Below, piece after piece: positions 11,776 through 15,413 of a DNA stretch of 64,000 nt. This DNA is from Vicinamibacterales bacterium. GTDB taxonomy: Bacteria; Acidobacteriota; Vicinamibacteria; Vicinamibacterales; JAENWD01. The stretch spans positions 73,755 through 137,754 of the forward strand of contig DASVDJ010000035.1 of the NCBI GenBank assembly GCA_036381155.1, in the 5' to 3' direction. How positions within the stretch are numbered: the stretch's first letter is position 1; each line of letters begins with the position of its first letter. A program made the translations under genes and the position numbers. The notes beneath the pieces were generated by a model. It did no database searches. It saw nothing but the letters and a program-made list of their open reading frames with translations, and had not been told where the DNA came from.

Positions 11776-12657
11776 TCAGGCGGCCTGCGCGGCCGTCTCC
11801 GTGCCTCCGCGCTGGCCCTTGCAGTACTGCTCCGTCTCCTCGAACGTGGGCCGCACGTCGGGCGGGAGCACGCGCCGCGCGAACTCCACCGCGATCGCCG
11901 GCGGGAACCCCTTGTAAACCGCGAGCAGGCCGGTCTTCAGGCACCGGGTGTAGTGCTCCTGGTCGTGCACGACGTGCTCCAGGTAGGCGCCCATCGGGTT
12001 GAAGAAGCCGTAGCAGAGCAGGATGCCGAGGAAGGTCCCGACGAGGGCCGCGGCGACCTTGTGGCCGATTTCCGACGGAGGGCCATCGATCGCGCCCATC
12101 GTGATCACGACGCCGAGCACGGCGGCGACGATGCCGAGTCCGGGCATGGAGTCGCCGAGGCGCGTCAGCGTCGACGCCGGCTTCAGCCCCTCCGCCTGGT
12201 GCACCTCGAGGTCTTCATCCATCAGCGCCTCGAGGTCGTGCGGCGAGATGCCGCCGATGATGATCACCTTCACCGAGTCCGAGAGGAAGTCGACCGCGTG
12301 GGGCCGCGCGAGGAAGCGCGGATACTTCGAGAGCAGGGGGCTCGTCTTCGGATCCTCGAAGTGCGACTCCAGCGCCATGACGCCGGACTGCTGCACCAGC
12401 TTGAAGAGCTGGTACTGCATCCCGAGGAGCTCGAGATAGTCCTCCTTCGGCACCGCCGGGCGGAAGAACCACGCGACCTGCGAGACGATGCGTTTCAGCA
12501 GCGGCAGCGGCGTGCTGATCAGCATCGCCCCCAGCCCCGCACCGCCGATGATGACCAGCTCGGATGGCTGCCAGAGGACGCCGAGGTGGCCGCCATGCAT
12601 CATGTAGCCACCCGCGACGGATCCGAGAACGACCAGCACACCCAGAATCAACAGCAT
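11776..12657 (-). CDS. motA: Flagellar stator protein MotA (set 1)
   Basis: 293 aa. MotA/TolQ/ExbB-family channel whose N-terminus MLLILGVLVVLGSVAGGYMMHGG resembles proteobacterial MotA. Confidence 0.9.
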   Translation of the reverse strand: MLLILGVLVVLGSVAGGYMMHGGHLGVLWQPSELVIIGGAGLGAMLISTPLPLLKRIVSQVAWFFRPAVPKEDYLELLGMQYQLFKLVQQSGVMALESHFEDPKTSPLLSKYPRFLARPHAVDFLSDSVKVIIIGGISPHDLEALMDEDLEVHQAEGLKPASTLTRLGDSMPGLGIVAAVLGVVITMGAIDGPPSEIGHKVAAALVGTFLGILLCYGFFNPMGAYLEHVVHDQEHYTRCLKTGLLAVYKGFPPAIAVEFARRVLPPDVRPTFEETEQYCKGQRGGTETAAQAA

Positions 12658-12682
12658 GACGCCCCCGGTCTCAGTCGCCGTT

Positions 12683-12709
12683 CAATCGGCATCCGGCCGC
12701 CAATCTTGA
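12683..12709 (-). promoter_or_regulatory. Sigma-28 (FliA)-type promoter for motA-motB-che operon
   Basis: The minus strand reads TCAA-N15-GCCGATTG (consensus TAAA-N15-GCCGATAA), ending 26 nt upstream of the motA ATG. Confidence 0.55.
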
Positions 12710-12822
12710 GCAGCGCCGTGCCGGATTGCGCGCCACGGCTCGCACACACCGGCCCCCGGCGGACCGGTTGACGTGCCGGACGACGCCGCGGCGGGACCGC
12801 CGCAGCCGTCCGATCGCCCCCG

Positions 12823-13053
12823 TCACCGACGGCCTGCCAGCTGGCGGATCCGGTTCGCGGCCGTCTCCGCGTTGCGGGCGGCGTCCACGATCCGCGACAG
12901 GTCGCTGCGAAGCGGCTCCGGAAGGTCCGGCGTCGTGAGATGCCAGTCGGCAAGGCCCAGAATCGTCGTGAGCGCGTTGTTCAGCGCATGCACCTGCTCG
13001 AGGATGCGCGGTCGCACCGCATCGTCAGGTCCGGGATCTCCCCCGCTGCTCAC
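12823..13053 (-). CDS. Stand-alone histidine-kinase DHp (HisKA-like) mini-protein, hypothetical
   Basis: 76 aa from GTG 13053, which overlaps the TGA of the HD-GYP gene (GTGA) with AGGTG 5 nt upstream. It has an H-box-like EQVHALNNALTTILGLADWHL followed by a second helix. There is no ATP-binding domain. Confidence 0.45.
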   Translation of the reverse strand: MSSGGDPGPDDAVRPRILEQVHALNNALTTILGLADWHLTTPDLPEPLRSDLSRIVDAARNAETAANRIRQLAGRR

Positions 13054-14120
13054 GACGTCACCTGGAGAGGCGCCGGATGGCTGCCGGCGTCCGGGTCGCT
13101 CGCGCCCGGCCGCCAGGACTCCGCGATACGGAGCCAGGCGTGGACGATGGCCGGGTTGAATCGCGATCCCGCACAGCGCACGAGCTCGGCCGCGGCGCGG
13201 ATCGACGCCAGCGTGTCGTCGGGCCGCTCGGAGGTCAGCGCGTCGAACGTATCGACGACCGCCACGATGCGCGCGCCGACGGGAATGGCTTCGCCGGCGA
13301 GTCCGAAGGGATGCCCGCTGCCGTCCCACGCCTCGTGCGACGCGGCGACGATCGCGGCGGCGCGTTCGAGACCGGGCACGGCGCGCACGACGTCGGCGCC
13401 GAGCTGCACGTGCGTGCGGATGAGCGCGATCTCCTCGTCGGTCAGCGGTCCGCGCCTCCTCATGAGCCCGTCAGGCAGCAGCGCCTTGCCGACGTCGTGC
13501 AGCAGCGCGCCGCGCGTGACGTCGGCCGTCTGCGCGGCGTCGAGTCCAAGTGCGCGGGCGAGCTCCGTTGCCATGCGGCTCACGCGCCACGCATGCTCCA
13601 CGGCTTCCGGCGCGCGCTCGCCGATGGCACGCACCAGCGACATCGTCGCCGACCCGGGGTCCGGCTGCGCGGCTGCGACTGCCGTCAACTCGTCGCGGCG
13701 GCGGGCGATCGCGTCGCGGGTCGCCTGCTCGGCCTCCCGATCGCGACGAACGCTCTCGCACCACTGCACGGCACGCCGCACCGCCTGCATCAGCTCGCGG
13801 CGCGAGAACGGCTTCAGCAGGAAATCGAGAACCCCCAGTCGGAGTCCTTCGGCCGCGACGTCGCATCCCTGATGCCCGGTGACCAGTACCACGCCGATGT
13901 CGGGATACTGTTCGCGCACCAGCCCGGCGAGCCACAGCCCGTCCCGGCCCGGCAGGATGAAGTCCAGCAGCACGACGTCGATGCCACCGGCCGACAGCCG
14001 GTCCAGTGCCGACACGGCGTCGCCGGCAACGGCACAGCGGTACCCCGCCGCCTCCAGCCACGACGACAGCAGGTCCCGAACGGCCGGATCGTCGTCCACG
14101 ATGAGAATCGATGCGTTCAT
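13050..14120 (-). CDS. Response regulator with HD-GYP-type domain (variant motifs)
   Basis: 356 aa from ATG 14120. REC domain (ILIVDDDPAVR, LLDFILPGRDG, FLLKP) plus an HD-GYP family domain (LLHDVGK, SHEAWDGSGHPFG). Confidence 0.88.
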   Translation of the reverse strand: MNASILIVDDDPAVRDLLSSWLEAAGYRCAVAGDAVSALDRLSAGGIDVVLLDFILPGRDGLWLAGLVREQYPDIGVVLVTGHQGCDVAAEGLRLGVLDFLLKPFSRRELMQAVRRAVQWCESVRRDREAEQATRDAIARRRDELTAVAAAQPDPGSATMSLVRAIGERAPEAVEHAWRVSRMATELARALGLDAAQTADVTRGALLHDVGKALLPDGLMRRRGPLTDEEIALIRTHVQLGADVVRAVPGLERAAAIVAASHEAWDGSGHPFGLAGEAIPVGARIVAVVDTFDALTSERPDDTLASIRAAAELVRCAGSRFNPAIVHAWLRIAESWRPGASDPDAGSHPAPLQVTS

Positions 14121-14186
14121 GTGCTGCGGTCCGCTCCTGCTCCTGCGCACCACGGGCGGAGTGAACCCGTGACGCGCTTCAGCGTG

Positions 14187-14214
14187 GGAATCGACGCGGG
14201 GAGCGGGATCTTGA
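14187..14214 (-). promoter_or_regulatory. Sigma-28-type promoter upstream of the REC-HD-GYP gene
   Basis: The minus strand reads TCAAG-N15-tCGATTCC, the same architecture as the fliC1 promoter (TCAAG-N15-aCGATTAC). It lies about 65 nt upstream of ATG 14120. Confidence 0.5.
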
Positions 14215-14237
14215 GCAGCTCGTGCGCTGTCTGGAGA

Positions 14238-15413
14238 TCAGCGATTCAGGCGGGGGCGGCGATCGGACGGCGAGTGCGCGTGCGCCAGGAGTCCGGCCGC
14301 AGCCGCTTCGCGAGCCTCCCGGCTGGGGGTGTACTCCGGTACGCCGGCCTGGAGATCGGCGAGCGCGGTCAGCGCGTCGTTGCGGCGGATATCGTCACGC
14401 AGGGCGCGCAGGACACGCCGGACCATCCGGACATCCGGTCGCGGCTGCCGGGCCGTCCAGATCCGGGGGTGCGACGTCCTGGCCAGGGACAGGCCGATGG
14501 TCGTCAGCTCTTCCCGCAGCTTCTCGCCCGGGCGCAGGCCGATATACCGGACCGGCACGCGTCGCAGGCCGATCGACTCCCCCCAGTTCTGGACGCGCTC
14601 GGCCAGATCGGCGATCCGCACCGGCTGCCCCATGTCGAGCCAGAGGATCTCCCCCGTCCGGCCCAGCAGGTCGGCCTTCACGATCAGCGACACCGCTTCC
14701 CGCGGCGTCATGAAATAGCGTGTGGCCCGCGGGTCGGTGAGCTCGATCGGCCGGCCGTCCCGCATCTGCTCGAGCATCAGCTCGAGCACGCTTCCGCTGC
14801 TCCCGAGCACGTTGCCGAAGCGGACGGCCACGACACGCGCGGAACGGCCCGCGGCCGTCAGCGCGACGAGCTCCGCCAGGCGCTTGGTCGCGCCCATCAC
14901 GCTGAGCGGCTGTGCCGCCTTGTCGGTGGAGACCTGGACGAACCGCGCGCCGCAGCCGGCCGCGGCGCGTGCGGCATGCCAGGTGCCGAACACGTTGGTG
15001 CGGACCGCACTCAGCACCGCGCGCTCGGCCATGGTGACGTGCTTGTACGCGGCGGCATGGTAGACGACGTCGGGCATCGTCCGCTCGCAGGCGTCGTCGA
15101 TGTCTCCCGCGCGACTGACGTCGCCGAGCACCGGCACGATGGGCACGTCCGGGCGCGACGCGCGCAGCTCGCGTTCGATGCGGAACAGGTTGTATTCCGA
15201 CTGATCGAAGAGCACGAGTCGCGCCGGCGCGCATTCGGCCAGCAGCCGCGCGAGCGCCGAGCCGATCGACCCGCCGGCGCCGGTCACGAGGAGACGGCTG
15301 CCCCGGAGCGCGCGGCGATCCGCGGCGCGCAGCAGGCCGCGCTCGCGCCGTCCGAGCAGCAGCTCCTGCAGGGAGACGCGCTCGTCGCTAGCGGGCTGCT
15401 TCAGCGGCTGCAC
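14238..15413 (-). CDS. NDP-sugar 4,6-dehydratase/epimerase, CapD/PglF/PseB family
   Basis: 391 aa. GTG start with AGGAGG 6 nt upstream. Rossmann motif LLVTGAGGSIGS, then YHAAAYKHV and FGNVLGSSGSV. Confidence 0.85.
   Translation of the reverse strand: MQPLKQPASDERVSLQELLLGRRERGLLRAADRRALRGSRLLVTGAGGSIGSALARLLAECAPARLVLFDQSEYNLFRIERELRASRPDVPIVPVLGDVSRAGDIDDACERTMPDVVYHAAAYKHVTMAERAVLSAVRTNVFGTWHAARAAAGCGARFVQVSTDKAAQPLSVMGATKRLAELVALTAAGRSARVVAVRFGNVLGSSGSVLELMLEQMRDGRPIELTDPRATRYFMTPREAVSLIVKADLLGRTGEILWLDMGQPVRIADLAERVQNWGESIGLRRVPVRYIGLRPGEKLREELTTIGLSLARTSHPRIWTARQPRPDVRMVRRVLRALRDDIRRNDALTALADLQAGVPEYTPSREAREAAAAGLLAHAHSPSDRRPRLNR

Follow-up and report, generated by a model that had tools for sequence, protein, structure and literature searches.

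A 76-codon gene overlapping a REC-HD-GYP regulator gene appears to encode a stand-alone histidine kinase DHp hairpin derived by stepwise domain loss

In a 64,000-nt window of a Vicinamibacterales genome, an ORF of 76 codons plus TGA (12823..13053, minus strand; protein P0001) lies between a REC-HD-GYP response regulator gene and motA. Homology indicates that it is a real gene for a stand-alone HisKA-type DHp domain, and not for a kinase, a Spo0B/ChpT-type transferase or an Hpt protein. Judged by what occupies the same slot in related soil Acidobacteria, the ORF is by origin the truncated remnant of a cytoplasmic hybrid kinase that went through stepwise domain loss, and comparison of its orthologs shows a DHp core that appears to be under purifying selection in the DHp-only clade and not to be dead DNA. 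We lean towards a reading in which this stand-alone DHp gene, as the end product of kinase domain loss, provides a hairpin that docks on the HD-GYP receiver and acts as a phosphatase or phospho-shuttle. The case for the gene draws on its sequence, a HisKA match, coding-like GC3, selection and the clade to which it belongs.

Results

A short ORF overlaps the stop codon of the REC-HD-GYP gene

We refer to the genome of the window as G000; G002 corresponds to L049 and G001 to L050/L010, L069 is a JGI contig and L043 is a Logan contig. The upstream cistron and presumed partner is a REC-HD-GYP response regulator gene (13050..14153, minus strand) with matches to Response_reg (1.4e-26) and HD_5 (1.1e-35). 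Its TGA (13052-13050) overlaps the GTG of the ORF (13053-13051) in a GTGA start/stop arrangement (13050..13053, minus strand) suggestive of translational coupling, and the ORF ends with TGA at 12825-12823. A Shine–Dalgarno-like AGGTG (13059..13063, minus strand) is located 5 nt 5′ of the GTG, within the 3′ end of the HD-GYP coding region. The first-pass annotation had described the same 76-codon frame, overlap and AGGTG spacing; its coordinates agree with ours, and the peptide that it quoted is the translation. It had placed about 110 nt of noncoding DNA before motA, which we correct to 165 nt.

The 5′ part of this spacer (12658..12822, minus strand) is homologous to DNA that, in G002 and L043, codes for the tail of the ortholog. 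The spacer also contains, 5′ of motA, a σ28-like TCAAG-N16-CGATT element (12683..12709, minus strand) conserved across seven loci, which come from both the DHp-only and the PAS-DHp-REC clade. motA (11776..12657, minus strand) forms the downstream flank of the conserved slot, and motA, motB and cheA follow the ORF in that order. In the ORF core, the GC content by codon position is 0.73/0.48/0.87, which resembles the neighboring genes of the window. At 72% GC, an open frame is by itself uninformative, and the evidence for the gene is therefore its homology to syntenic kinases.

The start codon has been annotated differently between genomes: the window was called from codon 13, giving a 64-aa protein (P0002; 12823-13014, minus strand), whereas for the orthologs the overlapping start was chosen. 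The codon-13 GTG is missing in the L043 ortholog, and the overlapping start is present in all orthologs, as GTGA three times, as an in-frame ATGA in L069 and as TGATG in G001. We therefore rejected the 64-aa start and took the overlapping GTG as the start codon. The AGGTG motif is identical in G002 and L043, and L069 has AGGTGG before the ATG that overlaps the stop codon; because the motif sits in coding sequence, its conservation is not independent evidence.

P0001 is a HisKA-type hairpin without an ATP-binding domain

HisKA was the sole family matched in a Pfam search of P0001 (PF00512, E = 7e-5, profile positions 11-61 of 66), with a score of 23.2 bits that lies below the gathering score of 26.9. 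The profile search suggested for the first-pass reading thus returned the expected family at a subthreshold score. Syntenic homologs pass the cutoff, with 31.8 bits for P0006 and 33.5 bits for the L062 kinase, and P0001 aligns to these two across the whole H-box. Membership of P0001 in HisKA therefore rests on transitive homology. In tblastn, matches to the syntenic kinases had E values of 1e-9 to 1e-14; Pfam gave no match for P0126, the L069 ortholog.

A single-chain AF2 model built from a 9-sequence alignment predicted two helices, residues 9-39 (12937..13029, minus strand) and 46-75 (12829..12918, minus strand), with a mean pLDDT of 87.8. They form the antiparallel two-helix hairpin of a HisKA DHp domain. 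Kinase DHp domains headed a Foldseek search against the PDB (a LOV-kinase chimera, the ERS1 DHp and the GacS DHp), all with E values of at least 0.3, which are not significant; because a helical hairpin carries too little information, we take this result as a consistency check only. No match up to E = 1 was found when the 76-aa protein was searched by phmmer against all PDB chains. The earlier proposal of an H-box helix plus the second helix of a HisKA DHp domain is upheld by the Pfam match, the AF2 hairpin and homology to the syntenic kinases.

No HATPase_c domain was found in the 76-aa protein, and in the orthologous loci of L049 and L069 tblastn with a CA query gave no match. As had been noted from the sequence, no sensor or ATP-binding domain follows the hairpin: HisKA alone is matched, and noncoding DNA comes next. 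P0001 is therefore not a histidine kinase, and the earlier label of mini histidine kinase is a misnomer. A pseudo-CA second domain of the Spo0B/ChpT type was looked for in the P0001 sequence and in the AF2 model, and none was found. The Hpt profile (PF01627) gave no match to P0001 up to E = 10.

The H-box keeps the phosphatase residue and has lost the kinase residue

The putative phospho-accepting residue, His22 (CAT codon, 12988..12990, minus strand), opens the H-box of helix 1, as in HisKA domains. It is invariant across the hairpin-only and CA-less relatives, and aligns with the His of the HDFNN and HDLNN motifs in full kinases. The same alignments show invariant N26, A27-T30, G33 and W37, which include the ALTT..G..W block, and invariant R49, D51, A58 and A62 in helix 2. 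Conservation of the frame and of its His in relatives had been proposed as a check on the first reading; the frame is intact in four genomes.

Conservation runs from the His down helix 1, through the loop and along the first half of helix 2, and the last third of helix 2 is variable. Between the His and the loop, helix 1 is nearly identical in the four DHp-only genomes. In structures of kinase–regulator complexes, the conserved face is the docking surface for receiver domains, and the CA domain of kinases follows on from the last third of helix 2.

The H-box of P0001 reads H-A-L-N-N-A-L-T-T, with Ala at H+1 and Asn (Asn26) at H+4. Ala occupies H+1 in all four hairpin-only proteins and Arg, Lys or Thr does so in the nearest CA-less relatives; in the HisKA-REC proteins P0005-P0010 the position is acidic (Asp or Glu), as it also is in most of the kinases that bear CA (HDFNN and HDCNN motifs, with HQFNN in one). 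Across four HisKA kinases, Willett and Kirby found that the acidic H+1 residue is needed only for kinase activity and that Thr or Asn at H+4 is needed only for phosphatase activity (PMC3510030). Loss of the kinase residue with retention of the phosphatase residue and the His fits a protein that does not autophosphorylate and might still act chemically on a receiver.

These residues also bear on two other readings of the hairpin. It might belong to a split kinase: a separate CA protein would phosphorylate the hairpin in trans, and the hairpin would then phosphorylate the HD-GYP receiver. The invariant His would suit such a role, and the two-domain reconstitution of EnvZ is a precedent, its DHp (domain A) and CA (domain B) being known to complement each other when isolated. 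We consider it very unlikely: there is no adjacent CA-only gene, the neighbors being the REC-HD-GYP gene and motA; CA was lost long before REC, and the CA-less forms are themselves conserved; and the H+1 acid for autophosphorylation is replaced by Ala (PMC3510030). A system recorded with two kinase genes, Rv0600c-Rv0601c-tcrA, provides a further precedent (PMC3544749).

The second reading makes the hairpin an anti-kinase or dominant-negative partner, which heterodimerizes with the DHp domain of another kinase, in the manner of RetS acting on GacS, and does not act on the HD-GYP receiver. DHp domains are dimerization modules, the GacS DHp in the RetS complex (7n0e) is among the best Foldseek matches (at E values that are not significant), and loss of the H+1 acid fits a noncatalytic role. 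However, the genome has no close DHp paralog that could serve as target (best matches at E of at least 0.07, with 33-45% identity over ~50 residues), it gives no reason for His22 and Asn26 to be strictly invariant, and the coupling of the genes points to the HD-GYP protein. This reading is accordingly an unlikely one.

The slot between REC-HD-GYP and motA holds kinases at several stages of reduction

Syntenic loci were gathered by genome search, two collection scans and exact look-ups, and their domains were checked with Pfam. The REC-HD-GYP gene is present in 3 of 14 sampled genomes of the window's genus (G000, G002 and G001). Four classes of protein occupy the slot, with hybrid kinases in basal lineages and forms that lack the ATPase domain in nearer ones. 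The first consists of hybrid kinases in which PAS_4, GAF or no sensor is joined to HisKA-HATPase_c-REC (L052, L062, L063, L065-L068); the upstream REC-HD-GYP gene was detected in L052, L065, L066 and L068, and was not detected beside L062, L063 or L067. PAS_4-HisKA-REC proteins without the ATPase domain make up the second (L056-L061, P0128, P0133). HisKA-REC proteins of 200-240 aa make up the third (L014, L044, L045, L047, G001, P0127, P0129, P0131), with lengths of 200-212 aa in L014, L044, L045 and L047. The fourth is the HisKA hairpin only, with 76 aa in the window, 105 aa in G002, 101 aa in L043 and 94 aa in L069, or 107 aa in the last if translation begins at the in-frame ATG overlapping the stop codon.

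L069 shares the gene order of the window over 9 kb (NeuB, ATP-grasp, cytidylyltransferase, FlbD, MotA2, MotB2, epimerase, REC-HD-GYP, hairpin, MotA, MotB). A phmmer search over 1.84 billion representatives gave just 19 matches at E ≤ 1e-3, the nearest being these short proteins, so the DHp family is small and lineage-restricted.

Several loci show further peculiarities. Three HisKA-REC loci (L044, L045 and L047) have three extra genes between motB and MCP/cheA, encoding a REC protein of 212-219 aa, an Hpt protein of 116-121 aa and a REC protein of 128-130 aa; this trio is absent from the window, where cheA starts at the motB stop codon. The HisKA-REC gene of G001 (L050 4265-4840) carries a +1 frameshift in its receiver, between DFGMRG and MNGEAL, where the intact relative P0143 reads DFGMPGMNGEAL. 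The motA of G001 is a 33-residue N-terminal stub before cheA, and, in this MAG (1.6-Mb contig), sequencing error and real decay are both possible. Apart from one residue, P0132 (JGI, 106 aa, 39.8-kb contig) agrees along its full length with P0143, a HisKA-REC protein of 226 aa, and ends exactly at the linker–REC boundary; it may be a second, independent DHp-only form made by a stop codon. The G002 record CAYUPN010000040.1 is titled 'uncultured Bifidobacteriaceae bacterium', a label that is probably wrong because its flagellar/chemotaxis locus is 84-95% protein-identical to the acidobacterial window.

The DHp core appears to be under purifying selection

We compared the core of the ORF, defined as codons 19-74, among the four DHp-only genomes. 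Relative to L069, the core dN/dS is 0.37, 0.30 and 0.25 (one-sided Fisher p of 0.0017, 3.5e-4 and 1.5e-5) at a dS of 0.90-1.31, in NG86 estimates that are crude at 87% GC3 and come from pairs that share branches. In the same comparison, the C-terminal tail has a dN/dS of 0.54-0.79, which is not significant, and the N-terminal 18 codons have values of at least 1. The hairpin is constrained and the tails are not, and the tails therefore serve as an internal control. The L069 HD-GYP protein is 74% identical to that of the window, with a dS of ~0.67.

Among the three close genomes, the core dN/dS is 0.53, 0.75 and 0.32 and is not significant in two of three pairs; the adjacent HD-GYP C terminus has 0.11-0.16 in these genomes. 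Constraint on the ORF thus looks weaker than that on its neighbors. When neutral evolution was simulated crudely, a dN/dS of 0.53 or below arose in 4% of trials, and the frame stayed open in 78% of trials at the G000–G002 distance. The frame is intact in all four DHp-only genomes, and the indels preserve it: the N-terminal tail differs by 12 nt in G002 and the loop by 9 nt in L069. In two of the three close pairs, substitutions are rarest at codon position 2.

This pattern makes it extremely unlikely that the ORF is untranslated and owes its conservation to a 3′UTR or some other RNA or DNA element that follows the HD-GYP gene and precedes the motA promoter. The region does lie just upstream of the conserved σ28-like promoter. 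Yet the substitutions are codon-patterned, the indels respect the frame, GC3 in frame is high and homology to kinase DHp domains holds at the protein level. Moreover, an Rfam scan of 12400-13400 at E ≤ 1 gave no match, and neither did a scan of 12500-14400 for σ70 promoters and intrinsic terminators.

The sole serious rival is that the ORF is a nonfunctional relic, a hairpin left after deletion of the REC half and drifting to loss, which persists because the deletion is young and frames are long at 72% GC. The gene has indeed been shrinking, with variable tails (76, 101, 105 and 94-107 aa in total) and a CGA-to-TGA nonsense change in this genome. The values of 0.5-0.75 between the closest genomes, the open frame in most neutral trials and the further damage at the G001 locus (the REC frameshift and motA stub) are in keeping with decay. 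Against it stand the L069 comparison, in which the core is constrained at a dS of 0.9-1.3 and the tails on either side of it look neutral, the near identity of four genomes in the His-to-loop part of helix 1, the in-frame state of every indel and the retained coupling signals. The L069 comparison in particular argues against a relic, and we regard this explanation as rather improbable.

Flanking genes place the hairpin at the end of a series of domain losses

Maximum-likelihood trees were made of the flanking HD-GYP and MotA proteins, and L043 was left out of both as too short. The DHp-only loci (window, G002 and L069) form one clade with support of 100/100 for HD-GYP and 99/98 for MotA. The MotA tree places this clade within the CA-less group (89/93), itself the sister of the HisKA-REC group; midpoint rooting leaves the CA-bearing loci outside. 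In the HD-GYP tree this position is less clear: the clade is supported, with the PAS-DHp loci L060 and L061 as its nearest neighbors (82/86), and the deeper order is not resolved.

Because relatives hold a full hybrid kinase and ATPase-less intermediates in the slot, the hairpin originated by truncation, and a three-step loss is the simplest history. The first form would have been a sensor-DHp-CA-REC kinase, neighbor and presumed cognate partner of the REC-HD-GYP protein, in a pair resembling RpfC/RpfG. The ATP-binding CA domain would have been lost first, giving the PAS-DHp-REC and DHp-REC forms. PAS and REC would then have been lost once, in the ancestor of G000, G002 and L069 (and of L043, by synteny and sequence), leaving ~60 DHp residues with unconstrained tails. 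Finally, the CGA-to-TGA change in this genome cut off the remaining 25-29-residue tail; the tail DNA removed in this way is still recognizable in the spacer. When the 3′ ends of PAS-DHp-REC genes were compared with the DHp-only tails for deletion boundaries, the motA promoter alone aligned. A search of the window's genome (96% complete) for a relocated receiver gene found generic paralogs alone, at ≤38% identity, and so the receiver was lost and not split off.

The first-pass annotation had weighed a partner role against a relic of a truncated kinase, and had held that full-length kinases at this position in relatives would mark the present copy as a decayed fragment. The origin as a relic of a truncated kinase is borne out, since full-length hybrid kinases and ATPase-less forms do occupy the slot in relatives. 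Simple decay is not borne out, since the DHp core appears constrained in the DHp-only clade.

The receiver of the presumed partner is canonical

A motif alignment shows that in every lineage the REC-HD-GYP receiver keeps the canonical DD, D, T and K, and it would therefore still need a phosphodonor and a means of reset. CheA, three genes downstream, is a candidate phosphodonor for this receiver. His-to-His phosphotransfer requires a receiver Asp in between, and direct phosphorylation of the hairpin His by CheA, as first suggested, is for that reason chemically unlikely.

In the HD-GYP tree, a long branch of 0.6 changes per site leads to the DHp-only clade. The receiver of this clade differs from that of all relatives near the active site, with LLDFILPG in place of LLDLA(M/L)PG and VTG(H/Y)QG in place of VTGLQR or CTGWQS. 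Receiver positions of this kind, next to the active site, set dephosphorylation rates, and the change may reflect retuning alongside the truncation of the partner. The HD-GYP signature SHE...DGSG(H/Y)P, with Ser for the first His, is common to all syntenic relatives, and so its 'non-canonical' form marks the family and does not mean that this copy is defective. The GYP motif reads GHP in the DHp-only clade, as it does in L058 and L061.

Discussion

A phosphatase or phospho-shuttle role on the REC-HD-GYP protein is the most likely function of P0001. The hairpin, unable to autophosphorylate, would be made together with the REC-HD-GYP protein from one message through the start/stop overlap. It would homodimerize into a four-helix bundle, and the dimer would dock on the canonical receiver of the partner. 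There it could speed dephosphorylation, an effect that the DHp of EnvZ has on OmpR-P when isolated; alternatively, His22 could accept and return the phosphoryl group, making the protein a small Spo0B-like shuttle or sink. Either activity would tune c-di-GMP hydrolysis within the flagellar/chemotaxis regulon.

More tentatively, the Vicinamibacterales might possess a family of kinase-less DHp modules (PAS-DHp-REC, DHp-REC and DHp alone) that forms an ATP-domain-free phosphorelay or phosphatase node between chemotaxis phosphorylation and a REC-HD-GYP phosphodiesterase at a stator locus. P0001 would then be the smallest natural HisKA-type His-phosphotransfer or phosphatase protein. We regard this broader proposal as possible though doubtful.

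A limited literature search yielded no account of a DHp-only protein that is natural and under selection. To our knowledge, isolated DHp domains are active solely as laboratory fragments, and the natural kinase-derived phosphotransferases known to us, Spo0B and ChpT, all keep a dead CA domain. If P0001 is indeed a naturally selected DHp-only protein, the hairpin alone would be a sufficient signaling unit. The graded ancestors at one fixed slot, from hybrid kinase through CA-less to DHp-only forms, amount to a natural experiment on which kinase functions survive. The locus links phosphorelay chemistry to c-di-GMP turnover in the flagellar regulon of Acidobacteria, a poorly studied phylum. Were the protein inert, the locus would still be a tidy example of stepwise gene decay.

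Among known systems, the closest functional precedent is 'domain A' of EnvZ, described by the Inouye laboratory, a CA-less DHp hairpin of about the size of P0001. This fragment of 67 residues reportedly dimerizes, participates in phosphotransfer and is still able to act as a phosphatase on OmpR-P. Domain A is an engineered fragment with the H+1 acid, whereas P0001 is the predicted product of a natural gene with Ala at H+1. Spo0B and ChpT are likewise four-helix-bundle proteins derived from kinases and unable to use ATP. Unlike P0001, they keep a C-terminal pseudo-CA α/β domain and are two to three times larger. ChpT is a DHp-type phosphotransferase that passes phosphate between receiver domains (PMC3433190).

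Other parallels concern the arrangement of the genes. In Mycobacterium tuberculosis, the Rv0600c/Rv0601c-TcrA system has its His-bearing and ATP-binding parts on separate polypeptides encoded by adjacent genes, whereas P0001 has no CA partner nearby and has lost the kinase-specific H+1 residue. RetS–GacS regulation proceeds through DHp–DHp contacts, and its structure is among the best fold matches of P0001, but RetS is a full-length hybrid kinase and the P0001 genome lacks a close DHp paralog. RpfC/RpfG of Xanthomonas pairs a hybrid kinase with a REC-HD-GYP regulator, and this arrangement of a hybrid kinase gene beside a REC-HD-GYP gene resembles the presumed ancestral state of the present locus. 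RpfC, a membrane protein, retains CA, REC and Hpt domains; at the P0001 locus, the DHp is left alone.

The direct parent family is found at the locus itself. The HisKA-REC proteins P0005-P0010, annotated 'response regulator', and the PAS-HisKA-REC proteins P0128 and P0133 occupy the same slot, lack an ATP-binding domain and share with P0001 an H-box of the form H-x-L/F-N-N-A-L-T-T..G..W. These relatives keep a canonical receiver and some keep PAS, whereas P0001 has lost both.
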